A stretch of DNA of 62,009 bases from the NCBI GenBank assembly GCA_026388515.1, contig JAPLJO010000032.1:1-62009 (forward strand), given 5' to 3'. The DNA comes from Deltaproteobacteria bacterium (GTDB lineage Bacteria; Desulfobacterota; Syntrophia; Syntrophales; UBA2210). The notes under the pieces are model-generated. The model was not told the origin of the DNA and made no database searches. It saw only the letters and a list, made by a program, of their open reading frames with translations. Positions 531-62,009 of the stretch are shown here, in pieces. Position 1 is the stretch's first letter. Each line of letters starts with the position of its first letter. The translations under genes were made by a program, and so were the position numbers.

Positions 531-565
531 ATATATGACCTGTTTACGAAAGAATAATAGGAAAT

Positions 566-627
566 TCGGCGAGTGTTGAGTTTGTTCGTCCCATAATTAT
601 GAGTCACAAATCGCTTTATTATTTGTT
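566..627 (+). pseudogene. Degenerate duplicate of the 3' end of the PilZ ORF
   Basis: 580-627 (gtttgttcgtcccataattatgagtcacaaatcgctttattatttgt) aligns with 464-513 of the intact ORF. The alignment has one 4-nt gap, one 1-nt gap and a few substitutions. Confidence 0.55.
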
Positions 628-640
628 TCTTCCCCAACCC

Positions 641-739
641 TTGACCACACACATCTCACGTAATAAAAAAGGGTCAGCCTTACTCAGCCAACCTTTTATT
701 TTATTCATACAGCCTCTGCCACTTATCTTTCATTGACAA
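641..739 (+). repeat. Intergenic repeat copy 1 (68-nt core 641-708 plus shared tail ending tcattgacaa)
   Basis: The core ttgaccacacac...aaaaaagggtcagcc..cagccaacctttt..ttattcat is shared with copies at 1669 and 2878. The hairpin arms are degraded in this copy, with no compensatory changes. Confidence 0.8.
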
Positions 740-795
740 CTTGAATAAAAAGTGGTTCATAGAAACAGTAGTTGTAGAGGGTTCTACAATTAATA

Positions 796-845
796 AGGAG
801 GGAGTTATGGGTCGTTTCTCGTAATGAGAAACGAGGTCTTTGTAT
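796..845 (+). promoter_or_regulatory. Leader with 5-codon mini-ORF (807-824, MGRFS*) embedded in a perfect 8-bp hairpin (813-833)
   Basis: aaggaggga SD, then atg ggt cgt ttc tcg taa. cgtttctc/gagaaacg form the stem with a gtaat loop, followed by a T-rich stretch. It lies about 40 nt upstream of the YD-lipoprotein start. Confidence 0.3.
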
Positions 846-875
846 TTACAAAATTGAAAAAGGAGACGTAACTGT

Positions 876-1652: not shown

Positions 1653-1668
1653 GAAATAAAGAGTATTC

Positions 1669-1765
1669 TTGACCACACACTTATCATAAACAAAAAAGGG
1701 TCAGCTTCATTCAGCTAACCCTTTCATTTTATTCATCACGCCTTTGCCGATTCAATCATTGACAA
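1669..1765 (+). repeat. Intergenic repeat copy 2 (core 1669-1736; hairpin 1694-1724 plus T-run; tail ending tcattgacaa)
   Basis: 60/68 identical to copy 3 by direct count. aaaagggtcagct/agctaaccctttc form the stem, followed by attttatt. It could also act as a terminator for the upstream gene. Confidence 0.85.
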
Positions 1766-1812
1766 TATGCTTTGAAATATGGTTCTCTGAAGCTGATTAA
1801 AGGGGGTCTATT

Positions 1813-2742
1813 ATGTCAGAGGGATGGCAATTAATAGTATCTACCTTAAGAATATTTCAAAGATACCCATTGTTTATAATTCCTATTCTTATTGTCTGGC
1901 TTATCTATGCTGCGATAATTATGTATCTAAAATATTTTTTCCCATGGGATAATTTTGGTTCTGGAGCAGTCTTAGGTATAATTTTTCTTACACTGTTTGT
2001 TTTCTCTTTTATTATTCTGGCTTCTTGTTCCGTAGTGCTTGAGCTAATCCAGCAGCTTGAAACAGGGGGAAAATTGAGTTTAGGTGGTGCGTTTCAAGAA
2101 ACGCTAAGCAAAGATATAACTAAGGTCCTTACTCTTGCTTTTATTTGGGCGATACTTTGGTTTATCTTAACTATCATTGAAGCAATTCTTTCAAAAGAGA
2201 AGGAAGGAAATGAAGAATTTGACGCTGAAAATGTAGCGAAGACGCTGGCAGATTATAGAGAGTTCTCTTTTAGCAGAGCACTTATTGAGGCTTTTGAGAA
2301 AGGCATCAGAATGATTATATTTCTAATACTTCCTGCCGTTGCATGGGAGGATTTAAGTTTTACTGATGCAATAAAAAAGGGGTTGAGAGTTTTGCGAACA
2401 CATTTAGCAGAGTTTGCCAGTGGCTATGCCCTTACTTATGGAGCAGCTATTTTGGTATTTATTCCACCTATAATCATAGCTAAACTTGGTAGCGGCCAGG
2501 ATGGCCATCCTCCATTAATTAATTTTCCTGATTCGGTTTGGGTAGGTGTTATCATATATATAGGTGTTGCGTGGAGTTTTTGTATGTACCTTGAGCAAAT
2601 GTTTACTGCAAATCTATATCTTTGGCATTTAAAATGGGAAAGACAAGTTGAATTAGCTAAAAAACAGGGGCATTCGTTGCCAGACTTTAAGGAAATTAAG
2701 CAACCATCTCTTTTAGACAACATTCCTGATTTAGTAGCTTAA
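1813..2742 (+). CDS. Hypothetical multi-pass membrane protein, 309 aa
   Basis: ORF track. Several long hydrophobic segments; SD aaaggggg upstream. I recognise no family. Confidence 0.6.
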   Translation: MSEGWQLIVSTLRIFQRYPLFIIPILIVWLIYAAIIMYLKYFFPWDNFGSGAVLGIIFLTLFVFSFIILASCSVVLELIQQLETGGKLSLGGAFQETLSKDITKVLTLAFIWAILWFILTIIEAILSKEKEGNEEFDAENVAKTLADYREFSFSRALIEAFEKGIRMIIFLILPAVAWEDLSFTDAIKKGLRVLRTHLAEFASGYALTYGAAILVFIPPIIIAKLGSGQDGHPPLINFPDSVWVGVIIYIGVAWSFCMYLEQMFTANLYLWHLKWERQVELAKKQGHSLPDFKEIKQPSLLDNIPDLVA

Positions 2743-2874
2743 TATATGTATAAACTGTTTCATGAAAATGATGCGATATCTTAGTTAATGAAAAAAGTGG
2801 CTCCGATTCAATCTACCACGCAACTCGTTCAAAAAACTATCTCTATCATATTATTGTCCACCCCCTTGTCCAAA

Positions 2875-2945
2875 TCATTGACCAAACATTAATCAGAAAA
2901 TAAAAAGGGTCAGCTTCATTCAGCTAACCCTTTTGTTTTATTCAT
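2875..2945 (+). repeat. Intergenic repeat copy 3 (core 2878-2945; hairpin 2903-2934), bidirectional terminator abutting tRNA-Leu
   Basis: It starts with tcattgacca, which joins the tail motif of copies 1/2 to the core start. The last T is the complement of the tRNA terminal A. T-runs lie on both strands. Confidence 0.85.
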
Positions 2946-3031
2946 GGTGCCGAAGCCGGGACTTGAACCCGGACGGGTTGTGCCCACTACCCCCTCAAGA
3001 TAGCGTGTCTACCAAATTCCACCACTTCGGC
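2945..3031 (-). tRNA. tRNA-Leu(GAG), 87 nt with long variable arm and encoded CCA
   Basis: Reverse complement GCCGAAGTGGTGGAATTTGGTAGACACGCTATCTTGAGGGGGTAGTGGGCACAACCCGTCCGGGTTCAAGTCCCGGCTTCGGCACCA. Anticodon stem CTATC/GGTAG with loop TTGAGGG. The secG-tRNA-Leu(GAG) synteny matches E. coli secG-leuU. Confidence 0.9.
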
Positions 3032-3092
3032 ATTGCATTCACGATATTTTTTTCTTCCTTTGTTGTCAATAAAAAACAACTCTCAACTCTTG

Positions 3093-3461
3093 TTACTGGC
3101 CTGCCGGGGCCTGGGGTGCAGGTGCCTCAGCCGGAGGAACCGCCGGTACAGGTGCAGGAGCCGTTGGTGCCGGTGTCTGTGGTACTGTCTGTTCAATCGG
3201 CGGCGGTGCCGCTTGGTCCACCACGGAACTGCCCTTGTGGGAGGCGAAGTAGGAGAGCCATAATGAGGTGAGCATAAATATGATGGCGATGACCGTCGTC
3301 ATCTTGTTGAGAAACGTTCCCGGTCCTCCGCTGCCGAATACCGTCTGACTTGATCCCCCGAAGGCGGCCCCCATGTCGGCGCCTTTTCCCGTCTGCAGAA
3401 GCACCACGCAAATGAGAATAATACACATGATCACATGAACAATGGTTACTAAGACTATCAA
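3093..3461 (-). CDS. secG: Preprotein translocase subunit SecG with Pro/Ala-rich C-terminal tail
   Basis: LLQTGKGADMGAAFGGSSQTVFG motif. TTG start overlaps the tpiA stop (TTGA). Confidence 0.85.
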   Translation of the reverse strand: MIVLVTIVHVIMCIILICVVLLQTGKGADMGAAFGGSSQTVFGSGGPGTFLNKMTTVIAIIFMLTSLWLSYFASHKGSSVVDQAAPPPIEQTVPQTPAPTAPAPVPAVPPAEAPAPQAPAGQ

Positions 3462-4225
3462 TTCCCTTTCTCCTTGCTTGCGTTTTGTATGATGGCCGCG
3501 AATGAATCGAAATCGAGACTCGCGCCGCCCACGAGGGCGCCATCGATATCCGGCTCCGCCAGAAGCTTGCCCGTATTTCCGGGTTTCACACTTCCCCCGT
3601 ATATGAGGGGAATATCCGCAGCATCGTGTTCACCGCACGTATCCTTCAGTATAGTACGTATGAAACGGTGAACCTCCTCCGCCTGGATGGCCGTGGCATT
3701 CCTTCCGGTACCGATGGCCCATACCGGCTCATAGGCGATGGAGAGGAGCTTTATATCACCGGAGGAAATATTATTCAACGCCTCTTTTAACTGGCGTTCC
3801 ACCACCGGAAAGGTAAGGTTTTTTTCTCTTTCTTCCAGTGTTTCCCCCACGCAAAGTATAGGTGTGAGCCCGGCGCGAAGGGCCGCTGCAACCTTGCGGT
3901 TGATCCAGTCGCCGGTCTCTTTGAATATCGCGCGGCGCTCCGAGTGGCCAATGATGACGCAGTCGCAGCCGGCATCTACAAGCATGGCCGCGGCGATCTC
4001 TCCCGTGAAGGCGCCCTTTTCCTCCCAGTGGAGGTTCTGCGCCGCAAGATGGATGGCGGAGCCTTTGAGCACGTCACCCACGGCAGCAAGAGCCGTGAAG
4101 GCGGGGGCGATGATGACAGTTCCCTGCGGCTTTGGGAAGGCCGCCTTCAGCGAGCGTGCAAAGTCAGCACTCTCGGCGATGGTCTTGTGCATCTTCCAGT
4201 TTGCGGCGATGACCGGTTTTTTCAT
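3458..4225 (-). CDS. tpiA: Triosephosphate isomerase
   Basis: AANWKMHK, IIGHSERR and AYEPVWAIGTG motifs. Confidence 0.95.
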   Translation of the reverse strand: MKKPVIAANWKMHKTIAESADFARSLKAAFPKPQGTVIIAPAFTALAAVGDVLKGSAIHLAAQNLHWEEKGAFTGEIAAAMLVDAGCDCVIIGHSERRAIFKETGDWINRKVAAALRAGLTPILCVGETLEEREKNLTFPVVERQLKEALNNISSGDIKLLSIAYEPVWAIGTGRNATAIQAEEVHRFIRTILKDTCGEHDAADIPLIYGGSVKPGNTGKLLAEPDIDGALVGGASLDFDSFAAIIQNASKEKGN

Positions 4226-7273: not shown

Positions 7274-7349
7274 GCTGGCGTAGCTCAACAGGTAGAGCAG
7301 CTGATTTGTAATCAGCAGGTTGCGGGTTCGAGTCCCATCGCCAGCTCCA
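7274..7349 (+). tRNA. tRNA-Thr(TGT)
   Basis: GCTGGCG.../...CGCCAGC acceptor, anticodon loop TTTGTAA, GGTTCGAGTCC T-arm, CCA encoded. Confidence 0.9.
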
Positions 7350-7362
7350 TGGATAACGATAG

Positions 7363-7450
<88 letters not shown>

Positions 7451-7522
7451 TAACAACTAAAGGATGACGTTTTCGCAAAATGTCGGAAGTCGGACTTTTT
7501 CGAAGCCATCAAAGATACGAGT

Positions 7523-7598
7523 GCGGGAGTAGCTCAGTGGCTAGAGCGTCAGCCTTCCAAGCTGAGGGTCGCGGGTTCGAATCCCGTTTCCCGCTCCA
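7523..7598 (+). tRNA. tRNA-Gly(TCC)
   Basis: GCGGGAG/TTCCCGC acceptor, anticodon loop CTTCCAA, GGTTCGAATCC, CCA encoded. Confidence 0.9.
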
Positions 7599-7653
7599 TT
7601 ATTTTATACGTGCGAACACATATACAAGAGTGAAGGAGTCGACGTCCCGGCAG

Positions 7654-7729
7654 GCCCACGTAGCTCAGTCGGTAGAGCACATCCTTGGTAAGGATGAGGT
7701 CACCAGTTCAATCCTGGTCGTGGGCTCCA
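7654..7729 (+). tRNA. tRNA-Thr(GGT)
   Basis: GCCCACG/CGTGGGC acceptor, anticodon loop TTGGTAA, AGTTCAATCCT, CCA encoded. Confidence 0.9.
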
Positions 7730-7751
7730 TTTCAGTGGAGGCGGTTTAAGG

Positions 7752-7901
7752 ATGAGAGAGATAATCACACTTGCGTGCAGCCAGTGCAAACAGAGGAACT
7801 ACTCGACGACGAAAAACAAGAAGGAGGACAAGGACCGTCTTGAATTGAAGAAGTACTGCCGGTTCTGCCGGGTCCACACGCTTCATAAGGAAACGAAGTA
7901 A
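7752..7901 (+). CDS. rpmG: 50S ribosomal protein L33 (49 aa, below the ORF-track cutoff)
   Basis: Manual translation gives [49 protein letters not shown], with CxxC...CxxC and SD aagga upstream. Confidence 0.9.
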
Positions 7902-7920
7902 CACTCAATGGCAGACACAC

Positions 7921-7997
7921 AGGCCAGTAGCTCTAATGGCTAGAGCACCGGTCTCCAAATCCGGGTGTTGGGGGTTCGAGTCCCTCCTGGCCTGCCA
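7921..7997 (+). tRNA. tRNA-Trp(CCA)
   Basis: AGGCCAG/CTGGCCT acceptor, anticodon loop CTCCAAA, GGTTCGAGTCC, CCA encoded. Confidence 0.9.
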
Positions 7998-49611: not shown

Positions 49612-51066
49612 ATGCTGAAATCGATCGAAGGGAGCCCGCTCTATCCTATCGTCAATCCCCGCAGTGTGGTCTTCTTCGGGGCATCGAACAGGGCCTCGGC
49701 CATGGGGACATCCCAGCTCCTCTCACTGAAGGTGCTGGGATACCAGGGGGCCGTCTATCCCGTTCACCCGAAGGAAACCACCGTACAGGGACTGCCCGCC
49801 TACCGGCATATCAGGGACATCCCGGAAATACCCGACCTCGCGGTGATTGTCCTTACGGCGCCGCTTGCCTGCGAAGCCCTTGAGGAATGCGCCGAAGCGG
49901 GGATGAAATCCGCCATCGTCATTTCCGGTGGATTCAGGGAGGCAGGCCCTGAAGGCGCCGCGATGGAACGCCGTCTCGTGGAGACGGCAAAGACCCACGG
50001 CATGCGGTTTCTGGGGCCGAACTGCATCGGTGTTGCCAATCCTCACCAGCAGGTGAATACGACATTTCTCAGGTACGAGGGAAACCCCGGGTTCATCGGC
50101 CTGGCGTCCCAGAGCGGAAGTTACGTCACCCAGATGTTCCACTACCTCTCACAGTTCAGTCTCGGGTTCAGCGCAGCCTTCAGTGTGGGGAACGAGGCGA
50201 ACGTGGATATCGTGGACTGCATGGAATACCTCGGCGCCTGCCCTCACACACGGGTGATCGCCCTCTATATCGAGGCGATACGGCGGGGACGGGAGTTCGT
50301 GGAGGTGGCGCGCTCTATTGTCCCCCATAAGCCCATCGTGGCCTACTATGCAGGCGGGTCGGAAATGGGGAGACGTGCCGGCTTTTCCCATACCGGCGCC
50401 ATGGCCGGGCCCGACCGCCTCTACGACGGCGTGTTCCGCCAGAGCGGCGTCCTGCGCGCGCAGTCCATGACGGAGCTTTTCGATTTCTGCATGGCGCTGG
50501 GTAACCTTCCTCCGCCGGCGGGAAGGAGGGTCATGATACAGACCCATTCGGGCGGGCCCGGGGCTGCCGCCGCTGATGCCTGCGGACGTGCGGGGCTGGA
50601 ACTTCCGGAAGTCTCGCGCAATGCCGTGGAAAAACTCTCCCCCTACATCCCTCCCACGGGGAGCACCGCAAATCCGCTGGATATCACCTACAGCAGGAAC
50701 GTCATGGACTATTTTCTAAAAATTCCCAAGGTGCTGCTCGCGGATGACGCTATCGACATCTTTCTCTTCTATATTCTCATGCCTTCGGATATGGTGAGAG
50801 CGTCGTTCCGCGACTTGGGTGTTCCCAGCGAAGAAGTGGAAGAAAAAAGCGAGAGCTTCCTGAATAACCTGAGCTCCTACGTGGCGCACCTGAGAGAGGA
50901 GTACGGGAAACCCCTCGTGGGATTTACTTACCGGAGCTTCAATGAACGCTTTGTCGCCGGACTTCTGGAGCAGGGCATTCCCGTCTATGCGGGACCGGAG
51001 CGGGCCATACGGGCGATACAGGCGCTGGTGCGGTACCATGAGATCAAGAGTAAGATCAGGAATTAA
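49612..51066 (+). CDS. Acyl-CoA synthetase (NDP-forming) alpha-type / CoA-binding protein, 484 aa
   Basis: PRSVVFFGAS...VYPVHPK...LAVIVL (CoA-binding), then ISGGFREAG and FLGPNCIGV (succinyl-CoA-ligase-like). Confidence 0.75.
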   Translation: MLKSIEGSPLYPIVNPRSVVFFGASNRASAMGTSQLLSLKVLGYQGAVYPVHPKETTVQGLPAYRHIRDIPEIPDLAVIVLTAPLACEALEECAEAGMKSAIVISGGFREAGPEGAAMERRLVETAKTHGMRFLGPNCIGVANPHQQVNTTFLRYEGNPGFIGLASQSGSYVTQMFHYLSQFSLGFSAAFSVGNEANVDIVDCMEYLGACPHTRVIALYIEAIRRGREFVEVARSIVPHKPIVAYYAGGSEMGRRAGFSHTGAMAGPDRLYDGVFRQSGVLRAQSMTELFDFCMALGNLPPPAGRRVMIQTHSGGPGAAAADACGRAGLELPEVSRNAVEKLSPYIPPTGSTANPLDITYSRNVMDYFLKIPKVLLADDAIDIFLFYILMPSDMVRASFRDLGVPSEEVEEKSESFLNNLSSYVAHLREEYGKPLVGFTYRSFNERFVAGLLEQGIPVYAGPERAIRAIQALVRYHEIKSKIRN

Positions 51067-52343: not shown

Positions 52344-52577
52344 ATGGCGCGCCATGCGGTAATCCTCTTCTTTTCCACCAATTACGCCATCTGGGCCTCC
52401 GATGAACTGAAGCGCGCGGGGATTCCCTTCAAGATGATTCCCGTTCCCCGGCACCTGAGTTCCGACTGCGGCGCCTGTCTCCGTGTTGAGAAGGCTGATA
52501 CGGGGCGCGTCGAGGCGCTCCTCAAGGCGCAGTCAATCGACTATGACCGGTGCGAAGACCTTCCGGCGTCTCAGTAG
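52344..52577 (+). CDS. DUF3343 / putative Se-S carrier-like small protein, 77 aa
   Basis: AVILFFSTNYAIWASDELKRAGIPFKMIPVPRHLSSDCGACLRV matches the DUF3343 pattern. It starts 3 nt after the desulfurase stop. Confidence 0.7.
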   Translation: MARHAVILFFSTNYAIWASDELKRAGIPFKMIPVPRHLSSDCGACLRVEKADTGRVEALLKAQSIDYDRCEDLPASQ

Positions 52578-53611
52578 ATGTAAGAAATCATGATCGATCC
52601 GAAATGGTGGTTTCCGTCCTGTCCCTCGAATTCTCGTGTTCTCGTGACCTGCGCGTAGGAGAGCATGAAGCGGTACCAGGTGAGACAGATTCCCGTGGTG
52701 AGGTCCGCCACAAAGAGATTCTTCTCCACATTATTGCTTTTCGTGAAGGTGTTCCCGTCGAGAAAGACATCCCGGAGCACGAGACGTCCTTCCACCGACG
52801 CGAAGGCGTAGAGGCTGAAAGGGTAGTTTTCCGAGAGCCTGGGGTCATGTGAGTCTGCGGGTGCGCTCGTACCGCCCGCGGGCCGGATGAGCGACGTGCC
52901 GAAATCATAGGGAATACTCCAGCCGGCCCTCGCTTCAATGCCCGTCGAAACACAGGTCAGTACGTTTCCCGCGGCACCGCCCAGGTATGTAATCGCGTCG
53001 ATATCAAACTCCTCTGTCAGGCCGGTACGGAAAAACCGGTACTTCCGCTCGCCGGTGATGACAAGGCCCGGTTCATTTCTCAACTGGTTGTCCCAGCCGT
53101 TCGGTATATCGACGTGTTTTATTTTGTGGACAAGCCGCTGGGTATTTTCAGCGTAAGACTGGGGGCCGATAATGCCGAGTGCGAATTCAAGCGAATCCAG
53201 GCGCCGGTCGTTTTTGCTGTGGAAGCCGGTACTGAGATAGGTCCATCCCGCATAGGGGCGGTCATCGGTGACGAGGTCATGACGGTACGTGTCTTCCGGT
53301 GTGTACATGTTCTGTCCGATGGAGAAAGAAATGTTGTGGAGGAGCCCCGGTTCGTTGATGAAGGGAAGTTTTTCAATGACGGGAAGAATCCACCCTGGGA
53401 GTTTTCCTGCTTCGGCGAAGCTTACGAGGTCCCTGGATACCCAGGTGAGCTTCACACCGTTGGTATAGTGTTCATCCGTTCCCGAGAAAAGGTCGTTTTC
53501 AAGGTAGAAGCTGAGTGTATGGGCCTCTTCCAGCTTTACCGCCGCCGCCGGCCCCGTGAGGAGTCCCGTCACCGCGAGTACGAGAAGCACAAGGACGCGT
53601 ATTTTTTTCAT
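52571..53611 (-). CDS. lpxR: Lipid A deacylase LpxR-family outer membrane protein
   Basis: Signal peptide MKKIRVLVLLVLAV, then FYLENDLFSGTDEHYTNGVKLTW. Internal ATG chosen (the track ORF extends to 53716). The 3' end overlaps the convergent DUF3343 gene by 7 nt. Confidence 0.75.
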   Translation of the reverse strand: MKKIRVLVLLVLAVTGLLTGPAAAVKLEEAHTLSFYLENDLFSGTDEHYTNGVKLTWVSRDLVSFAEAGKLPGWILPVIEKLPFINEPGLLHNISFSIGQNMYTPEDTYRHDLVTDDRPYAGWTYLSTGFHSKNDRRLDSLEFALGIIGPQSYAENTQRLVHKIKHVDIPNGWDNQLRNEPGLVITGERKYRFFRTGLTEEFDIDAITYLGGAAGNVLTCVSTGIEARAGWSIPYDFGTSLIRPAGGTSAPADSHDPRLSENYPFSLYAFASVEGRLVLRDVFLDGNTFTKSNNVEKNLFVADLTTGICLTWYRFMLSYAQVTRTREFEGQDGNHHFGSIMISYIY

Positions 53612-53731
53612 GGCATGACCCGGAAGCGCTTTTATCACACGGCAGATGAGAAGCCCGCCGCCGCCATTACTTCTCGCCGCCAGCGATTTGACGGCGTTGC
53701 AGAAAGGCAGGAACACGTCACACTGTGGCGA

Positions 53732-56086
53732 CTACATGTAGCGGCGGTGCTGTATGGCCTGTATGAAACCGACGGCGCCGGGAGAAATCTGCGCCGCGTT
53801 CGCCTCGTCGGTATCGAGGTGCATATCAATCCTGAAGTCGGGGTGAACCCGGATGAGCACGTCGCCGTAAATCAATTCCCGCACACCCGCCACCTTTACC
53901 ATCACCACGTCTCTATCCCTCAGTCCCAGCCGGAGGGCCTCTTCGGTGGACATGTGGATGTGACGCTTCGCGCAGATGACGCCCTTGTCCAGCGTGAAGG
54001 CGCCGGCCGCGCCCTCGATCCTGAGTCCCGGTGTCCCCTCGATGTCTCCCGAATCTCTGATGGGAGCGTCGATGCCGAGCCTGAACTGCTCGGTCCGCGA
54101 GATTTCAATCTGGGACTCTTTTCTGGTGGGGCCGAGGATTCTCACGCGGTCAATCTTTCCCTTGGGTCCGATGAGGTTGACCGTTTCCTCTGCGGCGTAC
54201 TGTCCCGGCTGGCTCAGCTCCGATTTGGGCTTCATGGTCCTTCCGCGGCCGAAGAGTGTTTCGAAATCGGCCTGGCTCAGATGGACATGGTGAGCCGAGG
54301 TGCTCAGCGGCACTCCCGTTGAGCTGAAGGCCAGGATCGTCTCTTCCGGCCGCACCCTGCCGAGGGCATGGATTGTTTCCCGGGCGATCATTTTTTCCTC
54401 ATCCGCGGGGACCACGAGGGCACGCACTTTCGCGCCCGGCTCTGAAATATCGACAACGGTGCCGCGCTGCGCCTTCGTTTTTCTGTTCGTATAGTTGCAG
54501 AGGACGATGCCGAAGGGGTCCAGACCCTGGCAGATGCGCGCCCGGATTTCCGGCGAATTTTCGCCGATTCCCCCTGTGAAGATGAGGGCATCTACACCGC
54601 CCAGGGCAGCAAGATAGGCGCCGACGTATTTTCTCACGCGGTAGCAGAAGACGCTGACGGCCTGCTTGCAGCGCTCGTCACCCCGTTCGGCGGCTTCAAG
54701 CACTTCCCTCATGTCGTTGCTTCTGCCGCTGATTCCCTTGAGGCCGCTCTCCTTGTTCAGCATCTTGTCAATCGCCTCCGGGCTCATGCCTGCGTGCCTC
54801 ATGAGGTGCAGGATTACGCCGGGGTCGATGTCGCCGGCCCTGGTCCCCATGACCAGCCCTTCGAGGGGAGTCATCCCCATGCTCGTATCGATGCTCTGCC
54901 CGTGGTCAACGGCGCACACGGAGGCGCCGCTCCCGAGGTGGCAGGATATGATTTTCAACTCTCCCACGGGATGTTTCAGAAACGTGGCCGCAGAGAGCGC
55001 CACGAACTTGTGGTTGGTGCCGTGGAATCCGTAGCGTCGGATCTGTTCGGCTTCGCAGATCTGGTAGGGGAGGGCGTAGGTATAGGCGCTTGCCGGCATG
55101 GTCAGGTGAAAGGAAGTATCGAAGACAGCCACCTGCGGTGCCTGGGGGATCAGCCGCTGCATGAGATCGATGCCTTCGAGGTTATAGGGATTGTGGAGCG
55201 GTGCGAGGGTGAAAAAGGACCGTATCGATTCGGTCACGTCATCGTCCACCACGACGGAACTGGGATACTTGCTGCCGCCGTGAACCACCCGGTGTCCTAT
55301 CGCTTTTATTTCACCAAGTTCTTTGACGACGCCGAGGGAGGGGTCGGTCAGCGTGGTAACCATGGTCTGAAAGGCGGCCTCGGCATCAGCTACATCCTCA
55401 GCCGGCAGTTCCTTCCGGCCGCCGGGGGTTTTTATCGTGTGAAGCGTGTCCTTTGTGCCGATCCGTTCTATGAGGCCCTCGATGAGGGGGCTCGTTTTCT
55501 GGGTATCGAAGAGGGAGTATTTCAGGGAAGAGCTCCCGCAGTTGACCACGAGGATTTTCATCGCTTCCGAGACGGAGGAAAAATTGAGGTCGTAGGGGTC
55601 TTCGTTTTCCTTGTGGGCCTGTTTCAGCCGTTCCCTCTGGTCCTCGTCCCTCTCATTCTGGAGCATGCGCCTCGTGATGACCCGCGTCACCTTGGCAAGC
55701 GTGGCGTGATTGCCCGCCATCACCCGGGAGAAGACCTCGCGGGGAATTTTCACGACCTTGCAGGTCATTCCCGCCGTCACGTTGGCCGTGGCGGGCTCCC
55801 CCGTCATGATGGACATCTCGCCGAACACCTCGCCCCGTTCGAGGGAGGCAATCACCCTGCCTTCGCCGCCCGCTTCCGGGATCGAGACATCCACATGCCC
55901 GTCATAGACAATCCAGAGATAGCGGCCGATGTCCCCCATTTTTATAATGGAGGCCATGGGTGGATATTCGATGAGTTCGGCCCCGGCGGCGAGGAGCGAC
56001 ACTTCCTCGTCATTGAGGTCAGAGAGCATCCCGATGGACTTGATAAATTGCGAAAGGTTCATCGTTTCCATTCCTTTCCCGGGCAA
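53732..56086 (-). CDS. Triple fusion: cyclic-nucleotide-binding domain + acetate/propionate kinase + PduL-type phosphotransacylase, 784 aa
   Basis: aa ~15-140 cNMP-binding (RGEVFGEMSIMTGEPATA); nt ~55666-56044. aa 176-575 AckA (MKILVVNCGSSSLKY, FHGTNH, IFTGGIGENS); nt 54362-55561. aa ~590-775 PduL (SAHHVHLS, AKRHIHMS, LDTDEANA); nt 53762-54319. One uninterrupted frame. Confidence 0.85.
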   Translation of the reverse strand: MPGKGMETMNLSQFIKSIGMLSDLNDEEVSLLAAGAELIEYPPMASIIKMGDIGRYLWIVYDGHVDVSIPEAGGEGRVIASLERGEVFGEMSIMTGEPATANVTAGMTCKVVKIPREVFSRVMAGNHATLAKVTRVITRRMLQNERDEDQRERLKQAHKENEDPYDLNFSSVSEAMKILVVNCGSSSLKYSLFDTQKTSPLIEGLIERIGTKDTLHTIKTPGGRKELPAEDVADAEAAFQTMVTTLTDPSLGVVKELGEIKAIGHRVVHGGSKYPSSVVVDDDVTESIRSFFTLAPLHNPYNLEGIDLMQRLIPQAPQVAVFDTSFHLTMPASAYTYALPYQICEAEQIRRYGFHGTNHKFVALSAATFLKHPVGELKIISCHLGSGASVCAVDHGQSIDTSMGMTPLEGLVMGTRAGDIDPGVILHLMRHAGMSPEAIDKMLNKESGLKGISGRSNDMREVLEAAERGDERCKQAVSVFCYRVRKYVGAYLAALGGVDALIFTGGIGENSPEIRARICQGLDPFGIVLCNYTNRKTKAQRGTVVDISEPGAKVRALVVPADEEKMIARETIHALGRVRPEETILAFSSTGVPLSTSAHHVHLSQADFETLFGRGRTMKPKSELSQPGQYAAEETVNLIGPKGKIDRVRILGPTRKESQIEISRTEQFRLGIDAPIRDSGDIEGTPGLRIEGAAGAFTLDKGVICAKRHIHMSTEEALRLGLRDRDVVMVKVAGVRELIYGDVLIRVHPDFRIDMHLDTDEANAAQISPGAVGFIQAIQHRRYM

Positions 56087-56342
56087 CTGTGGTGATAAAT
56101 CGACATGCCTTTTTACTGAACGAGGGCTCTCGTGAATGCGTGCGTGGAGAATCGTGTTCGAGCAGGTATATCACCAGCCGGAGAACGAGGCGGAGCGGGA
56201 AATCGATGATAAAAGTGTGCGTGAATTGCCGTCTTCGGCGTGTGACGTTTTTTATCACTAATGGCGTGAGCAATACAGCAATTTTATCGTGTTCCCGTAA
56301 ACGGTGCGCCGGCCGCCATGAATATGATTCCCCCCGTCGCGC

Positions 56343-57248
56343 TCACAGGTATGAATCAAAACGTCCGTCCCTCACGCGGTGGTCGGCCCGCGCCCATTTG
56401 TTTTTACTCACCGTCTCCTGTACCACCGCGAGGCGGTCCGCCATGCCCGGGTGGGTTGAAAAGAATCCCCTCGTGCCCCCGGCTTTTTCTTCCTTTGCAA
56501 GCGTTGCGAGGTAATCGGGCATGCCGTTCGGGTCGTACCCTATGCGGTTCATGATGACGAGCGCGCCCTGATCGGCGGCCCGTTCCTGTTCCCGGCTGTA
56601 CCCGTTTGTGACGAGCGTTTTTACCACGTCGTTCACCGATCCTTCGAAGAGCGACGTCAGCTTCGCGATATCGCCTGAGCCATAGGTGCCGGCGACGTCG
56701 GACCCCAGGGCGGTGACCACTTCGAGCCACCGGGAATTCTGTATCGCCCTGACTCCGTCCCGGTGATTCACGTGGGCGATTTCATGGGCAAGGATTGATG
56801 CCAGCTCCTCTTCGTTTTTCGCCCTTGTAAGCATGCCGCGGCTCACGAAAATAATCCCCCCGGGACAGGCAAGGGCATTGACCTCATCGGTGGCGAGAAT
56901 GGCAAAGTGATACCCGCCGTAGGTCAGGGGAACATCGGATACCATGGCAAGTGCCTGTCCCACCTGGTTGACGTATGTCGTCAGTTTTTCATTCTGATCC
57001 AGTTTATATGTGCCGAGAATCGTCGCCGCGACGGCTCGTCCCAGGAAATATTCTTCCTTTTCCGTCATGGGACGTGCGGCGCGTTCAGCACCCTTTGCCG
57101 TTCGGTCGATGATTTCCTTGTCCTTCGCCGTAATCACCCCCATCTCCTGCCCTGCCGTCGTTCCCACCTTAACAACCTCGGCGCAGCCGGGCATCAGGAG
57201 AAGAAAGGTGAGGATGAATGCCATATGAAGCACGTGGTGACGTTTCAT
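56343..57248 (-). CDS. M48-family Zn metallopeptidase lipoprotein
   Basis: Lipobox LLMPGC and HEIAHVNHRD (HExxH). Confidence 0.8.
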   Translation of the reverse strand: MKRHHVLHMAFILTFLLLMPGCAEVVKVGTTAGQEMGVITAKDKEIIDRTAKGAERAARPMTEKEEYFLGRAVAATILGTYKLDQNEKLTTYVNQVGQALAMVSDVPLTYGGYHFAILATDEVNALACPGGIIFVSRGMLTRAKNEEELASILAHEIAHVNHRDGVRAIQNSRWLEVVTALGSDVAGTYGSGDIAKLTSLFEGSVNDVVKTLVTNGYSREQERAADQGALVIMNRIGYDPNGMPDYLATLAKEEKAGGTRGFFSTHPGMADRLAVVQETVSKNKWARADHRVRDGRFDSYL

Positions 57249-57721
57249 GATTCACCTCCCGGTTCCCTGAGCTTACCGGCCCGAATGAAGGCCTGAATCT
57301 TCTCATCGGTTATTCGATAGGATTCGACCTGGTTCACGAGGTCGTATCTCATCGCCGGGTTTTTATCGTGGAACGCCTTCTCCACCTCCGGGGTGAACCC
57401 CTTGCCGGCAAGGGCCACTTCGTCTTTCGTGGATTCCGCCGCCTTTCCTCCCCCAAGTGCCGTCCAGTCGATCTTCAGTTCCGTAACGGCGCTTTTATGA
57501 ATCCATCCCTGCGTGCCCCTGTAGGTGACGTTCAGCCAGTCTCCCTTTACTTCCCGGCTCTCGACCTTCTCGCCATAGGGTACGCGTATCACGATGGGGG
57601 CGAAGAAACGCCGGTCCTTCCTCACCGCCGCCTCCTCGTTGATGACCCGGTACGTGGCCGCATAGGCCGCGGCGCCCATGGTGAGCAGCACCACGAGGCA
57701 GCACCACAGCATCTTTTTCAT
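57245..57721 (-). CDS. Exported bacterial SH3-domain protein, 158 aa
   Basis: Signal peptide. SH3b-like VRVPYGEKVESREVKGDWLNVTYRGTQGWIHKSAV. ATGA overlap with the M48 gene. Confidence 0.65.
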   Translation of the reverse strand: MKKMLWCCLVVLLTMGAAAYAATYRVINEEAAVRKDRRFFAPIVIRVPYGEKVESREVKGDWLNVTYRGTQGWIHKSAVTELKIDWTALGGGKAAESTKDEVALAGKGFTPEVEKAFHDKNPAMRYDLVNQVESYRITDEKIQAFIRAGKLREPGGES

Positions 57722-57772
57722 GTATGTTCCCCTTCCTTTCCTGTGTAATTGCCGTATCGCGGATTGACGGTA

Positions 57773-59959
57773 CTACTTTGTCGTGAGCCGGTAGACACCG
57801 TCCCACCCTGCGGGCGGTGGATCTTTCATGAAGGCTTCGCACCGCTGAATGAACGTCTTCGAGGGACCATCGCCGGGATTGACCGCCAGCGCCTGCCGGA
57901 AGCTGGAGACGGCCTCGTCCCACCTCATTGCCCTGTACTGTACGAGTCCCTCGGTAAAGAGGCGCGCCGTCTCTTTCATTCCATCGTCGAGGGCGCCCGA
58001 TCTTGCCAGCACCTCGTAAATGCGGACGGGTTTTTCTTTGCCCTTTACCTGAAGAAGATCGAGCTCCCGCACTTCAATCCGGTCCTCTGCCTGCCGCCAG
58101 GTCTCCTCGCTGATGGTGATATGGGTCCCGTATTCCTTTCCGGCACCCTCGAGCCGCGAGGCCAGGTTGACGCTATCCCCGATAACGGTAAAGTCGAAGC
58201 GCTTGCTGGAGCCCATATTCCCGATGATCATCTCACCGGTATTGATGCCGATACGCGCATAGACCGGGGGGAGCCCCGCCCGCTGGAATTCCTCGCGGAG
58301 CCCGACGAGGCGCTCCTGGTTATCCAGGGCGGCGAGACAGGCCCGTGCCGCGTGGTCTTCCTGTTGGACGGGCGATCCCCAGAAGGCCATGATGGCGTCG
58401 CCCTCGTACTTGTCGATGATGCCGCCGCTCTCCAAAATGATGTCCGTCATGGCGGTGAGATATTTGTTGAGGAGGCCCACCACCTCCTCGGGCGAGAGCA
58501 TTTCCGACATCGAGGTGAACCCGGCGAGATCCGAAAAGAACACTGAAAGCACGCGTCGCTCACCGCCGAGCCGGAGCTTTTCAGGATTCCTGAGGAGGTC
58601 CTGAATGAGAAGATCGGACATATAGTGCGAGAAGGTCTGCTTGATCTGGCGCTTGTGCCGGCCTTCCGTGGCGTAACTGAACGCCGCCGTGAAGGCAAAC
58701 GCGAATCCCAGGGAGGCGAGAAGCAAAATCGCATCAACCCAGAGGTTCCGGTGGAAGGCGAAGAGAATAAACGCGAGAAGACCGCCGGTATAACAAAGAA
58801 CGGTGAGGAGCAAAGTCCCGTAGCCGCCGGCGAGCATTACCGTAATCCCCGTGAAGACGGCAACGGCGGCGGAGAGCGAAAACACGGCGGGAGGGGAGAT
58901 GCGTGTCCTGAAGTCTTTCTGAAGGAGGTTTGCGACCAGGGTCGCATGGATGGAGACGCCGGGGTAAATTGAGCTTACCGGTGTTGATTTCATGTCGAAG
59001 AGTCCCGGTGCCGTGAAACCGATAAAGACGATTTTATCCTTGAACGATTCCGGTGCATAGAGAGGCTTCCGCCCCTCCTCAAGGGCGAGAGCAGACGAGA
59101 TGACGTTGTAGGCGGAGTAGCGCTGATATTCCCTGTCCGGATCGTAGTAGGTAAGAAGAAACGTCCGCTGCCCGTCCAGCGGCACCGTAAGGCCGCCGAT
59201 TACCATTCCATCTTTCCTGAAAGAAACTGTACCGCCTCCCTCTGCGTCCCGGAAAGCCGCAAGCCCTATGGCGGGAATCCAGTCGGAGCGGTAACAGAAC
59301 GCCGGGGGAATACGCCGGAATATGCCGTCCGTGTCCGGAAAGGTTTTGACGTTACCAAATCCCCGGGCGGCCTCCGAGAGCGCCCTGACCGGAGGAATCA
59401 TGGAATTGTTTCCGGGTGTGGCGCATTGATCATCTTTCGCGAGAGGAAGTGCCGTTTTCGTAATTATTTCACGTTCCCACGGCTCTTCACCGCGGGCTTC
59501 CCCGCTCAGGAAGACGGGAAGATAGACATGGCCGTTGTCCCTCAGCGCCTCCGCGAGAAGATCATCATCCTCGACACCGTAGGAAGATGGTTCCGTATAG
59601 AGAATGTCGAACACCACCGCCTTTGCGCCGGCGCGCGTGGCGAACCGGACAATGGGCGCATACATCTGCCGCGGCCACGGCCAGTTGATTCCCTGCGCCC
59701 GGGCGGCGTCCAGGCTCCCCTGGTCCACGGCCACCAGGACAATATCCCGGGGAGCGGCCTTGCCGGCAACGAAAAACTGGCAGAGCCGGTCGTACGCCTT
59801 GAGCTCGAAGGATTCGAGAAAGCCGGTGAAATGGAGCGGGAGCATGAGAATCCAGACAATGATGCCGATGACGGTGCCGGCAGCGATTTTGCCTTTTTTC
59901 TCGAAAAGGGTGGCGAAGCGCATGGTAAAATTCTTACCCGGAGGGATACGCGAAGTCAA
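57773..59959 (-). CDS. CHASE2-domain class III adenylate/guanylate cyclase, 728 aa
   Basis: N-terminal TM, periplasmic CHASE2-like region and a TM bundle. Cyclase core VLSVFFSDLAGFTS...GDAIMAFWG...IGINTGEMIIGNMGS..RFDFTVIGDSVNLASRLEG. TPR-like tail. Confidence 0.85.
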   Translation of the reverse strand: MTSRIPPGKNFTMRFATLFEKKGKIAAGTVIGIIVWILMLPLHFTGFLESFELKAYDRLCQFFVAGKAAPRDIVLVAVDQGSLDAARAQGINWPWPRQMYAPIVRFATRAGAKAVVFDILYTEPSSYGVEDDDLLAEALRDNGHVYLPVFLSGEARGEEPWEREIITKTALPLAKDDQCATPGNNSMIPPVRALSEAARGFGNVKTFPDTDGIFRRIPPAFCYRSDWIPAIGLAAFRDAEGGGTVSFRKDGMVIGGLTVPLDGQRTFLLTYYDPDREYQRYSAYNVISSALALEEGRKPLYAPESFKDKIVFIGFTAPGLFDMKSTPVSSIYPGVSIHATLVANLLQKDFRTRISPPAVFSLSAAVAVFTGITVMLAGGYGTLLLTVLCYTGGLLAFILFAFHRNLWVDAILLLASLGFAFAFTAAFSYATEGRHKRQIKQTFSHYMSDLLIQDLLRNPEKLRLGGERRVLSVFFSDLAGFTSMSEMLSPEEVVGLLNKYLTAMTDIILESGGIIDKYEGDAIMAFWGSPVQQEDHAARACLAALDNQERLVGLREEFQRAGLPPVYARIGINTGEMIIGNMGSSKRFDFTVIGDSVNLASRLEGAGKEYGTHITISEETWRQAEDRIEVRELDLLQVKGKEKPVRIYEVLARSGALDDGMKETARLFTEGLVQYRAMRWDEAVSSFRQALAVNPGDGPSKTFIQRCEAFMKDPPPAGWDGVYRLTTK

Positions 59960-60121
59960 TGCGGAAATAGTGCCCGTGAAAAGCGGCGGACTTGAAGAAT
60001 GTAAAATTGATTGACAACTCCGGCAGGAAATGGTTCTTTTGAAGACGGCACATTTATATTACTGGGAACGAATGACTGAGAAGGCAGCCCGGATAGAATC
60101 CCGCCCATAACGATTTGACGG

Positions 60122-61177
60122 CTATTCCAATGTAGTGTCTTTTTTCGGGAACAGCATCGAAATCCCGATACTTCCCACCAGAATACTCACAATGACATAC
60201 AGTGAATGCACCGTGTGAAACCCGATTTCATCCAGCCACTCGTGCCCCAGAAGCTTCAGCCCCACAAAAACAAGGAGGAAGGAAACGCCTGCCTTCAGGT
60301 AATGAAACCGGTCCACGATTTTCATGAGCATGAAAAACATCGAACGCAAGCCATTCACCGCGAAGATGTTGGCGAAGAAGACGATGAAGGGATCGATGCT
60401 CACGGCAAAAATCGCGGGGATGGAATCCAGGGCGAACATGAGATCGGTAAAGGCTATCACGACGAGCACGATGAAAAGAGGCGTCATGCAGAGTTTTGAT
60501 TCGTTTCTCACGAAGAACTTGTTTGCCACATACCGGGGAAACACGGCAAAGTGGTTTGACAGGAACTTGACCAGCCAGTGGTGCTCCGGTTCTATCTTCT
60601 CCTCATCGTGGCGGGTGGCGAACATATGGGCGCCGGTGTAGACGAGAAACGCCCCAAAGATGTAAAGAATCCATTGGAATTTCACGACGAGGGCCGAGCC
60701 GACGAAGATGAAAATGCAGCGCAGAAAGATTGCTCCGACGATTCCCCAGAAGAGCACCTGTTTCTGATGTTCGGCGCGGACAGAGAATGCCGACAGAATC
60801 ATGATAAAGACGAAGATATTGTCAACCGAAAGCGAGTACTCGATGAGATAGCCGGTGATGAAGGTCAGTGCCAGGTTGTGGCGGTATAGTTCGATACTCT
60901 GCGCAAGATCACCTTCCACCAGCTTCAAATTGGGCGCATAGATCGAGGTGACCGCCCGAAGATGCTCCATGGTGCTGATGCCGTGTATGACTTCCCCATA
61001 GAAATAAAGGAATACGTAAAAAATAAGCGCGCAGGATACCCACACCCCACTCCAGATGGTGGCTTCCCTGAAAGACATGACACGCTTGCCCCTCCCGATG
61101 ACGGTGAGATCAAGGGTGAGCATGCCAAGAATAAAAAGCGCGAAGACAGCGAAGAACAGCACTTCATTTATCGGCAT
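60122..61177 (-). CDS. TerC/Alx-family integral membrane protein
   Basis: 351 aa, multi-TM, with the paired motifs EYSLSVDNIFVF and FALDSIPAIFAV typical of TerC. Confidence 0.85.
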   Translation of the reverse strand: MPINEVLFFAVFALFILGMLTLDLTVIGRGKRVMSFREATIWSGVWVSCALIFYVFLYFYGEVIHGISTMEHLRAVTSIYAPNLKLVEGDLAQSIELYRHNLALTFITGYLIEYSLSVDNIFVFIMILSAFSVRAEHQKQVLFWGIVGAIFLRCIFIFVGSALVVKFQWILYIFGAFLVYTGAHMFATRHDEEKIEPEHHWLVKFLSNHFAVFPRYVANKFFVRNESKLCMTPLFIVLVVIAFTDLMFALDSIPAIFAVSIDPFIVFFANIFAVNGLRSMFFMLMKIVDRFHYLKAGVSFLLVFVGLKLLGHEWLDEIGFHTVHSLYVIVSILVGSIGISMLFPKKDTTLE

Positions 61178-61378
61178 GATATCGCTGGAATCCTTTGTTT
61201 TTTATGATGACCATGGATGCATGATGCCGTCAGGCCGGGACATTCATAGCATATTCTTTGGTAAACTCAAAGGGGAAGGGATCATAAGAATTCAGGCTTT
61301 GGGAGAACCCGTCTGTTCTTCAAGTCTTAGAGATGATGGACTGCACGTAAATATGAATAATTCGTATTGGAGAAAAAC

Positions 61379-61654
61379 ATGAAAGCAAAACTAACGAAAG
61401 AAGAAAAGGAACTCCTTAGGGGCTTCGAGAAAGGCGAATGGGTTCCTGTCGCGGACCTTCCGAAAAGAAAGAAGGAACTCATTGAGTACGCACGGAATAC
61501 CCTGAGAAAAGACAAAAGACTGAACATTCGGATTTCCGAAAGAGATCTCGTCGAATTACAAAGAAAGGCAGTCAGGGAAGGACTGCCATATCAGGCTTAT
61601 GTCGCAAGCATTATTCACAAGTTTGTCAATGATACCTTAGTAGAAAAGAAGTAA
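61379..61654 (+). CDS. Ribbon-helix-helix (CopG/BrnA-like) type II antitoxin
   Basis: MKAKLTKEEKELLRGFEKGEW...KDKRLNIRISERDLVELQRKAVREGLPYQAYVASIIHKFV. GGAG lies 6 nt before ATG 61379; the track ORF starts at TTG 61367. Confidence 0.7.
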   Translation: MKAKLTKEEKELLRGFEKGEWVPVADLPKRKKELIEYARNTLRKDKRLNIRISERDLVELQRKAVREGLPYQAYVASIIHKFVNDTLVEKK

Positions 61655-61656
61655 GT

Positions 61657-61746
61657 GGTCGCGTCTTGACTTTTCACGGTTTTAAAATGTTCGTGCTTCT
61701 GTCTGACCTTGTAAGAAATAACTCTGTCAAAAGTAAAGACGCGACC
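61657..61746 (+). repeat. 21-bp imperfect inverted repeat (61657-61677 / 61726-61746) around a 48-nt AT-rich spacer
   Basis: ggtcgcgtcttgacttttcac versus the reverse complement of gtcaaaagtaaagacgcgacc: 19/21 pairs. It starts 3 nt after the antitoxin stop. Confidence 0.7.
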
Positions 61747-61852
61747 CCATGTCAACGAAGGGCACCTCGAAGTCAGGGTTCGTGTCGGCGATGATGGTGC
61801 CGAAGGAATCGTAGTCAACCTGTTTCACCACGTTCCCTGATGAATCGCTACT
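61727..61852 (-). pseudogene. Rhs/YD-repeat protein fragment (~27 aa of homology)
   Basis: Manual translation gives SSDSSGNVVKQVDYDSFGTIIADTNPDFEVPF, then divergence into the inverted-repeat arm and a stop. A TAA lies immediately upstream, so there is no start. Confidence 0.45.
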
Positions 61853-62009
61853 TTATCCAAAAGCCGCTTCTTACACTAGTATGGGATTTCAATTTAACTT
61901 CTTTCTTCTCCCTGAAGAAATAGACGTAGATGGCAGGTATTTCTAAAAACCCAGTTCTTTCATAAATTAAAGAATCGTATTCTGAAACGTATAAAAAATC
62001 ATGACCTCC

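Follow-up and report, generated by a model that had tools for sequence, protein, structure and literature searches.

A CHASE2 adenylate cyclase, an SH3b protein and an M48 protease form a conserved gene trio that adjoins a solitary cNMP-Ack-PduL fusion gene in a Syntrophales genome

Four consecutive genes were analyzed in the genome of a Deltaproteobacteria bacterium of the Syntrophales (UBA2210; assembly GCA_026388515.1, contig JAPLJO010000032.1, positions 1 to 62,009; the whole stretch of 62,009 nucleotides (nt) is termed the window). They encode a receptor adenylate cyclase with a CHASE2 sensor domain, an exported SH3b protein, an M48 zinc metalloprotease and an enzyme in which a cyclic nucleotide-binding (cNMP)-type domain is fused to acetate kinase (Ack) and PduL. 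The first three genes are a trio that is inherited together across bacterial phyla and represents a new form of receptor cyclase signaling, the mechanism of which we infer. The fourth gene is solitary and moves between genomic contexts. The reading that we favor, with somewhat better than even confidence, is that two independent units adjoin at this locus, a protease-coupled CHASE2 trio and a stand-alone fusion enzyme, and that they are probably expressed independently. The trio genes are co-inherited, the SH3b and M48 genes are translationally coupled and in some genomes fused, export signals are present, and the active sites of cyclase and protease are intact.

The CHASE2 cyclase, SH3b and M48 genes form a module across phyla

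The open reading frame (ORF) list of the window places all four genes on the minus strand, at the coordinates used in a preliminary description of the locus, and together with Pfam it agrees with that description on the series of genes and their domains. The cyclase gene (57773..59959) is followed after a gap of 51 nt by the SH3b gene (57245..57721), which overlaps the M48 gene (56343..57248) by ATGA (gaatcATGAaacg). Gap and overlap, both reported previously, were read directly in the sequence, as was a GGGAGG that precedes the M48 ATG. Alignments with orthologues begin at about residue 13, which points to an ATG at 59923 (MRFATL...) as a possible start of the cyclase. When one genome per species was scanned, the best matches of the window genes came from metagenome-assembled genomes (MAGs) of Syntrophales, with protein identities of at most 71%.

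For a set of 79 loci with related cyclases, SH3 and M48 profiles were built from the fetched loci. Both an SH3 and an M48 gene lie beside the cyclase in 58 of the 79 loci, and in 56 of the 70 that have at least 1.5 kb of downstream sequence. The trio was found in Syntrophales, Desulfarculia, Desulfobacteraceae, Geotalea, Desulfuromonadaceae and Syntrophorhabdaceae, and further in many Nitrospira and other Nitrospirota, Elusimicrobiota, Aminicenantes, Bacteroidota/Ignavibacteriales, Oligoflexia and Geobacterales. Three gene orders occur: the usual order is cyclase-SH3-M48, in which the SH3 and M48 ORFs overlap or nearly do so, while SH3-M48-cyclase is found at three loci (L095, L145 and L164) and a divergent arrangement at one (L141). 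Reverse look-ups from SH3 homologues (P0389, P0340) and from M48 homologues (P0481, P0441) led back to the same trio, and on two short contigs (P0357, P0315) the M48 gene still overlaps the SH3 gene. Every sampled member of the SH3 or M48 family with enough flanking sequence adjoins a CHASE2 cyclase.

The two partner genes are also found as a single ORF. Seven Bacteroidota/Ignavibacteria loci (L127-L133) encode a fused SH3-M48 protein of approximately 405-457 amino acids (aa), and for one of them (L128) Pfam confirmed both SH3_3 and Peptidase_M48. A second fused group, which is Desulfobacterota-like, consists of P0262 and five further clusters (P0390-P0394), and the P0262 group has the SDEVALAGKGFTPEVE motif of the window protein. 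As P0262 is nearer to unfused M48 proteins (55-70% identity) than to the Bacteroidota fusion (28%), the two fusions look independent, which suggests that the fusion arose separately in two lineages. The CHASE2 cyclase, SH3 and M48 genes are a widespread module inherited together irrespective of gene order. This neighborhood, its gene fusions and the reverse look-ups lend strong support to the earlier proposal of a joint function of the SH3 and M48 proteins with the CHASE2 sensor. A full-text literature search on CHASE2, alone or combined with M48 or adenylate cyclase, did not return a description of the trio, and as far as this search reached we could not find it described.

Several trio loci carry additional genes. 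In five of the loci with a fused SH3-M48 gene (L127, L128, L130, L131 and L133) an ORF of approximately 800 aa follows that gene, about 1.3-3.9 kb past the cyclase; the L128 product contains BamB-like PQQ beta-propeller repeats and may be a lineage-specific fourth component. Loci of Geotalea and Syntrophorhabdaceae (L114:11418-12650, L119:11636-12487, L123 and L125) encode a second M48 paralogue 1.6-2 kb beyond the downstream end of the trio, and the L114 copy is a Ste24-like membrane form with a five-helix N-domain. At five Syntrophales trio loci (L083, L086, L088, L089 and L090) a gene resembling ADP-forming acyl-CoA synthetases (CoA_binding and Succ_CoA_lig) adjoins the cyclase divergently on its upstream side, at approximately 6.1-7.8 kb of the minus strand. 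The window holds a paralogue of this gene with 31-36% identity at 49612-51066. The position of the synthetase-like gene beside the cyclase may be plain synteny among relatives.

Sequence features of the three trio proteins

The cyclase was characterized by Pfam, alignment to structures in the PDB, its orthologues and transmembrane segments read from the sequence. The CHASE2 periplasmic sensor domain (PF05226, E 2.4e-52; residues 36-370, 58850..59854 on the minus strand) is flanked by transmembrane helices, one at residues 24-44 and three within residues 358-430, and precedes the output domain, which matches Guanylate_cyc (1.7e-23). A short C-terminal extension gives a weak match to TPR repeats. 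The catalytic domain (residues 471-644, 58028..58549, minus strand) was aligned to 2w01, 6fht and 3r5g, and its closest solved relatives are Synechocystis Cya2 (2w01, E 1e-40) and Pseudomonas aeruginosa CyaB (3r5g, 1e-39). The metal-binding residues D477 (FFSD) and D521 (YEGD) match the corresponding aspartates of Cya2 and CyaB in the alignment, and the transition-state residues N598 and R602 lie within SVNLASRLE. The specificity pair Lys517/Thr591 is shared with CyaB, T591 standing where CyaB has Thr and Cya2 has Gly. CyaB has a membrane sensor different from CHASE2. Cya2 resembles the window cyclase in its metal and transition-state residues but is a guanylate cyclase with Glu and Gly as specificity residues; it is natively CHASE2-regulated, and its E488K exchange yields an adenylate cyclase (PMC5995499). 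Since K517 occupies the position of Cya2 E488, the product is predicted to be cyclic AMP (cAMP). The preliminary description had asked whether the cyclase lacks catalytic residues, and D, D, K, T, N and R are all in place. Judged by its residues, the enzyme is a class III (IIIb-type) cyclase of the adenylate type with a complete catalytic set.

The exported SH3b partner was identified by Pfam (SH3_3, 1.2e-7, 32.2 bits versus a gathering threshold of 27) and by alignment of its family. Its signal peptide terminates in AYA/A, its SH3b domain contains a GW[IVL]H motif, and its C-terminal half is predicted to be flexible. Family alignments reveal a linear motif in this tail, EVALAGKGFTPEVE (residues 101-114, 57380..57421, minus strand), which reads E-V-A-L-A-G-K-G-F-x-P-E-V-E and in which E101-F109 and P111-E114 are invariant in a 22-sequence alignment of Syntrophales-type proteins. 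In other phyla the motif takes the form [AS][AG]x[KR]G[FL], with SAGARGL in Nitrospira, AAAVKGF in Bacteroidota and ASARGL in Desulfobacteraceae. At E<=1e-10 the family comprises 966 representative clusters, for the most part full-length proteins of 150-175 aa, whose members are annotated simply as hypothetical or SH3 proteins. An AlphaFold2 model of the SH3 protein alone was unusable (mean pLDDT 46.7). In the modeled fused homologue the SH3 domain reaches a pLDDT of approximately 90 and is similar to the SH3b of endolysins and of NlpC/P60 enzymes.

The M48 protein was assigned from Pfam (Peptidase_M48, 1.6e-29), alignments to PDB structures and the presence of lipobox and HExxH across orthologues. 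HEIAH, the zinc-binding and catalytic motif, occupies residues 155-159 (56772..56786, minus strand), E222 aligns with the conserved Glu of BepA (NEQEAD) and of 3c37 (YENQAD), and a THP segment is present. HExxH was found in every trio-linked M48 protein for which this region was available. The protease is a predicted lipoprotein with Cys22 in LMPGC; the Pro at -2 is unusual, as most orthologues have L[AG]GC or [VA][AG]GC, and orthologues from Syntrophorhabdaceae carry a signal peptide that lacks the Cys. The best fold matches are Geobacter 3c37 and BepA, at approximately 20-30% identity. BepA, LoiP, YcaL and 3c37 all share the M48 fold and HExxH with the window protease, and LoiP carries the name of a lipoprotein M48 in NCBIfam (M48_lipo_LoiP), which would fit the lipoprotein nature predicted for the window protease. 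The window protease differs from BepA, LoiP and YcaL in having an SH3b protein as its partner and a gene locked to a CHASE2 cyclase. Membership in the BepA or LoiP families was rejected: the protein scores 99.8 bits versus an NCBIfam cut-off of 570 for BepA and 55 versus 365 for LoiP, and the TPR domain is absent. The notion that 3c37 is itself a solved trio member was likewise discarded, as it has approximately 30% identity even to the trio protease of Geobacteraceae.

These comparisons bear on a first alternative, in which the SH3 and M48 proteins serve ordinary envelope quality control of the LoiP/YcaL/BepA kind and share an operon with the cyclase, or are regulated by cAMP, without any role in sensing. 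The resemblance of the M48 domain to BepA and LoiP and of the SH3 domain to the SH3b of cell-wall hydrolases fits such a role. We nevertheless regard it as highly improbable: the scores fall far below the family cut-offs, the link to one cyclase subfamily survives changes of gene order across phyla, and a CHASE2 cyclase stands beside all sampled family members with sufficient flank.

A candidate mechanism for control of CHASE2 by proteolysis

In the mechanism that we propose, the SH3 protein and the M48 lipoprotein would act as a pair in the periplasm, and that they form a physical complex is quite probable. The protease would cut either the tail of the SH3 protein itself or an envelope or cell-wall-associated protein captured by the SH3 domain. 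A peptide present on, or removed from, CHASE2 would then set the activity of the cyclase and the level of cytoplasmic cAMP, which would be read by whichever cNMP receptor the lineage possesses; candidates from other phyla, encoded beside the trio, are an MscS-type channel with a cNMP domain, a stand-alone cNMP protein and a regulator of the CRP type. Control of the CHASE2 input by proteolysis through this pair is put forward tentatively, with a confidence somewhat short of even.

An alternative that draws on the same conservation and fusion evidence is that the M48 protease, with SH3 as its adaptor, acts on the receptor and sheds or trims the CHASE2 ectodomain or degrades the cyclase, which would amount to irreversible activation or to control of turnover. 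BepA-type proteases degrade membrane-associated substrates, and BepA and its kin, the nearest structural relatives of the window protease, are annotated as envelope proteases of beta-barrel assembly. However, the invariant linear motif is located in the SH3 protein and not in the receptor, no conserved candidate cleavage site emerged in CHASE2, for which no dedicated search was made, and we consider cleavage of the receptor rather unlikely.

Four observations temper our favored reading of a protease-coupled trio next to an independent fusion enzyme. Fourteen distant CHASE2 cyclase loci (e.g. from KSB1 and Caldithrix), mostly at 32-35% identity with one at 42% (L092), do not have the SH3/M48 pair, which is therefore not required by all CHASE2 cyclases. 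In an AlphaFold2 model of a natural SH3-M48 fusion the SH3 and M48 cores are confident, but the linker and the motif have a pLDDT below 50 and no docking of the motif on the protease was seen, so that the model speaks neither for nor against such docking. No terminator was detected between the M48 and fusion genes, so that transcription may read through into the latter. Finally, the loss of a phosphate-binding Arg from the fusion enzyme, described below, speaks against canonical cAMP binding without proving its absence.

Candidate receptors of the messenger were found in the flanks of ten trio loci in the form of cNMP-domain genes. An MscS-type channel with a cNMP domain is encoded at L095, L099 and L145 (at L099 directly upstream of the cyclase), a stand-alone cNMP domain at L094 and L158, and a CRP-type regulator at L106, confirmed by Pfam, and at L112, where size and cassette are similar; more distant cNMP-domain genes occur at L083, L088 and L121. 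In two distant MAGs (L095:6677-12763 and L145:5725-11133) the genes for SH3, M48, cyclase, a metallo-beta-lactamase-fold protein (Lactamase_B_2) and the MscS/cNMP channel follow one another on one strand. The Lactamase_B_2 protein is a possible cAMP phosphodiesterase, and the array looks like a complete cAMP cassette of sensor, degrader and effector. Of the cNMP genes counted around trios, 6 are near and 3 far; this is the expected direction, but the difference is not significant (p = 0.18) and was not used as evidence.

The fusion enzyme carries a cNMP-type domain with a degenerate cassette

The fourth gene (53732..56062, minus strand) encodes a fusion enzyme of 776 aa that was recognized by Pfam (cNMP_binding 1e-17, Acetate_kinase 1e-146 and PTAC/PduL 5e-74), NCBIfam and the architecture of its homologues. 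Its start is almost certainly the ATG at 56062 (MNLSQ...) and not a TTG at 56086, because 52 of 52 orthologues begin there behind an AGGAGG-type ribosome-binding site and the homologues are 771-789 aa in length. The previously reported gap of 256 nt to the M48 gene becomes 280 nt (56063..56342) with this correction. Of the 120 homologue clusters listed, at least 119 share the three-domain architecture. The genome annotation names the protein merely "acetate/propionate family kinase", and a full-text literature search did not return a paper that describes a cNMP-Ack-PduL fusion.

The preliminary description had stated that the first domain binds cyclic nucleotides. The fold is upheld by Pfam (PF00027) and by PDB matches to PKG, PKA, SthK and CAP, and the Gly-Glu of the cassette is kept (FGE, residues 88-90), as it is in most orthologues. 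The phosphate-binding residue is not. Alignment to PKG and PKA and to 54 homologues reveals a degenerate phosphate-binding cassette, FGEMSIMTGEPATANVTA (55772..55825, minus strand), in which FGEMSIMTGEPATANV has Ala99 where PKG and PKA have Arg (EPRSA, EPRTA, APRAA), followed by Thr; the reference positions are R209 of PKA RI-alpha and R82 of CAP, where the Arg binds the cyclic phosphate. This Arg is absent from 54 of 54 homologues, in which the following position is mostly Val, Ile, Met or Ala, whereas ten other cNMP-domain genes that were found near a trio or fusion gene have all kept it. The comparison with the trypanosomatid PKA is instructive, as loss of the Arg abolishes its response to cyclic nucleotides, nucleosides are bound instead, and restoring the Arg suffices to regain the response (PMC10959531). 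Both proteins retain the Gly-Glu ribose contact and lack the Arg, and the Val that follows it in the trypanosomatid PKA corresponds to the Ala-Val/Ile/Met of most fusion orthologues. The trypanosome domains differ in having a Glu at the position of RI-alpha Ala202, which clashes with the phosphate, where the fusion enzyme has Ser or Ala. As the domain is well conserved it probably binds some ligand, and its residues indicate that this is probably something other than cAMP, or that cAMP is bound weakly.

Several Syntrophales have two paralogous cNMP-Ack-PduL genes (L040, L041, L043, L044, L066 and L071 versus L020, L016, L010, L074 and L013). The second clade has 56-58% identity to the window protein and a more degenerate cassette (FGDMSVFTGNLVAFDY), and its L066 member appears to be frameshifted. 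Ack-PduL fusions of Myxococcota and other MAGs (L054-L070) align with the window protein only from approximately residue 150-176 onward and have no matching cNMP-type N-terminus, which is therefore a lineage-specific addition to an older fusion of the two enzymes. Mycobacterial Pat also has an N-terminal cNMP-type domain, fused to a GNAT acetyltransferase, with a canonical cassette and proven cAMP binding. It resembles the fusion enzyme in joining such a domain to an enzyme of acetyl-CoA and acetate metabolism (GNAT in Pat, Ack-PduL here), and its NCBIfam match to the fusion enzyme is weak.

The fusion gene is not linked to the trio in other genomes

The scan for fusion genes, which covered one genome per species, yielded 188 relatives of the fusion enzyme. 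Among the best 80 loci, which were retained, 52 hold full-length three-domain orthologues, almost all from Syntrophales. Flanks of up to 10 kb around these 52 loci contained no CHASE2 cyclase, SH3, M48 or LpxR gene, and conversely none of the 79 cyclase loci contained an Ack or PduL gene. When the neighbors of the fusion gene were clustered, no family occurred in more than 7 of the 52 loci, and the gene is thus found in unrelated, non-conserved contexts. The junction between the M48 and fusion genes was found on two other contigs: one is 100% identical and derives from the same organism, and the other has 95.4% DNA identity and, by this measure, belongs to the same species-level lineage. Assemblies with the fusion gene and assemblies with close trio orthologues did not overlap. 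As these were pattern-seeded searches limited to the best 80 loci and to incomplete MAGs, this is to be read only as a lack of support and not as avoidance.

The spacer (56063..56342) was examined by sequence scans. Promoter and terminator scans of its minus strand found nothing, a result that is uninformative for a non-model organism. A CRP-like palindrome (GTGAT-N7-GTCAC) at approximately 56250 was considered and rejected, as it is absent from 51 orthologous upstream regions and the 95% relative has a disruption in one of its half-sites. A riboswitch or structured leader was likewise rejected on account of a fold z-score of 0.31 and the lack of a nearby Rfam match.

These data bear on the circuit that the preliminary description had proposed, in which the N-terminal domain of Ack::PduL serves as the receptor for cAMP from the CHASE2 cyclase, so that an envelope cue tunes the flux from acyl-CoA to ATP and the four genes act as one functional, possibly co-transcribed unit. 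The common strand, a 280-nt spacer in which no terminator was detected and the junction kept in the 95% relative are compatible with it. Other trios adjoin bona fide cNMP receptors, so a variable effector beside the trio recurs, and a different acyl-CoA enzyme gene, the synthetase-like gene described above, stands divergently beside the cyclase at five Syntrophales trio loci. There are also cyclases next to fusion genes: at three Smithella-type loci (L007:4443-6719, L011:2386-4653 and L019:5804-8080) the fusion gene is preceded on its own strand, at a distance of 0.9-5.3 kb, by a GAF-GAF-PAS-cyclase-TPR gene whose product shares approximately 40% identity with the window cyclase in the catalytic domain and the C-terminus, and a fourth fusion locus (L025) has a divergent cyclase. 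On the other side, none of the 52 other fusion loci and none of the 79 cyclase loci shows the arrangement, and the assembly sets are disjoint. The phosphate-binding Arg is Ala here and missing from every homologue, the adjacent Ser/Thr/Ala position is mostly Val, Ile or Met, and loss of this Arg ends the cyclic nucleotide response in the trypanosomatid PKA (PMC10959531). The proximity counts do not help the circuit either, neither those for cNMP genes near trios (p = 0.18) nor those for cyclases near fusion genes (3 versus 2, p = 0.25); the latter, too, were not used as evidence. Conservation of the four-gene neighborhood had been named as the check on this proposal, and the neighborhood was found solely in the window organism and its 95% relative. 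With the context of its fourth gene unconserved and its receptor doubtful, the circuit therefore fails its own conservation test, and tuning of acyl-CoA/ATP flux through Ack::PduL, for which the cassette Arg is missing, is not supported. The circuit is best regarded as a low-probability, lineage-specific possibility, and the adjacency of trio and fusion gene as probably a species-level coincidence.

A broader version combines elements of both proposals. A large clade of CHASE2 receptors may be protease-coupled sensors for which the M48 lipoprotein, guided by its SH3b partner, would make or destroy a peptide sensed by CHASE2, maybe the invariant ALAGKGF tail of the SH3 protein. In this Syntrophales lineage the Arg-less cNMP-fold domain would in addition respond to the messenger, or else to a related nucleotide that is not cyclic, and thereby gate substrate-level phosphorylation by Ack-PduL. 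We consider this combination unlikely. No other cNMP-domain gene was detected in the 62-kb window with a locally built profile. At one fusion locus of a Syntrophaceae MAG (L006:5890-7659, minus strand) a Ser/Thr kinase with a canonical C-terminal cNMP domain is encoded 2.3 kb upstream of the fusion gene.

An anti-phage Pycsar system was also considered for the locus and rejected. Pycsar pairs a cytosolic pyrimidine cyclase with a cNMP-domain effector that has a transmembrane or TIR killing domain. Here the PADLOC matches to PycC and PycTIR extend no further than the cyclase and cNMP domains common to both systems; the purine-type Lys/Thr pair belongs to a membrane receptor with CHASE2, and the would-be effector is a metabolic enzyme.

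Other features of the window

The window looks like chromosomal DNA, as ORFs of 1364 and 1382 aa and many short ORFs at 11-38 kb resemble, judged from ORF sizes only, an rpoB/rpoC and ribosomal protein region. A cluster of five tRNA genes is located at 7274-7994 on the plus strand, and the first 4 kb (1-4000) have a low G+C content of 0.39-0.46. Upstream of the cyclase, a gene for a TerC-family membrane protein (60122-61177, minus strand) lies in a region (60001-62009) with a G+C content of 0.47 versus approximately 0.58, and neither a yybP-ykoY riboswitch nor any other Rfam family was detected around it. The fusion gene is followed by a gene for an LpxR-family outer-membrane lipid A deacylase (52571-53716, minus strand), which likely starts at approximately 53611 (MKKIRVLVLL...), about 120 nt downstream of the fusion gene. 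The LpxR gene is retained in the 95% relative and was found near no other fusion or trio locus.

Relation to known systems and significance

CHASE2 domains are found in cyclases, kinases and cyclic di-GMP enzymes. The pairing of a periplasmic protease with a transmembrane signaling protein is known from DegS/RseA and from LapD/LapG, the latter in cyclic di-GMP signaling. Both loosely resemble the proposed trio in coupling proteolysis to signaling, while the protease families differ; moreover, in the Lap system the messenger controls the protease from inside, whereas the trio protease would intervene at the input of the cyclase. The closest parallel for the receptor comes from Sinorhizobium meliloti, where the CHASE2 cyclases CyaD1, CyaD2 and CyaK answer a protein signal via the outer-membrane accessory NsrA (PMC13001267) and cyaD1 is located near clr and genes for exported proteins (PMC5498481). 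As in the trio, CHASE2 receptor adenylate cyclases are combined with a dedicated envelope accessory, and cAMP is read by a receptor with a cNMP domain. The S. meliloti cascade differs in that NsrA is an outer-membrane beta-barrel, the neighboring genes encode proteins with FecR or TPR domains, and neither SH3b nor M48 is described there. Its receptor Clr is of the CRP type with proven cAMP binding. The rhizobial cyclases serve as a supporting precedent for the mechanism proposed for the trio.

For the Syntrophales, the "cyclic-nucleotide-binding" label on their widespread Ack-PduL enzyme should not be taken to denote a cAMP switch. How syntrophs obtain ATP from acetyl-CoA is an active question, and the cultured model S. 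aciditrophicus is without any acetate kinase (PMC4992975). Given this interest in syntrophic energy conservation, the ligand of the fusion domain is worth finding. For CHASE2 receptors, whose signals are mostly unknown apart from the rhizobial case, the trio provides an experimental handle, as mutations can be directed at three small genes, at an invariant peptide motif and at a single catalytic glutamate. If the proposed mechanism is true, protease-coupled sensing would be the first general mechanism of ligand generation proposed for CHASE2.

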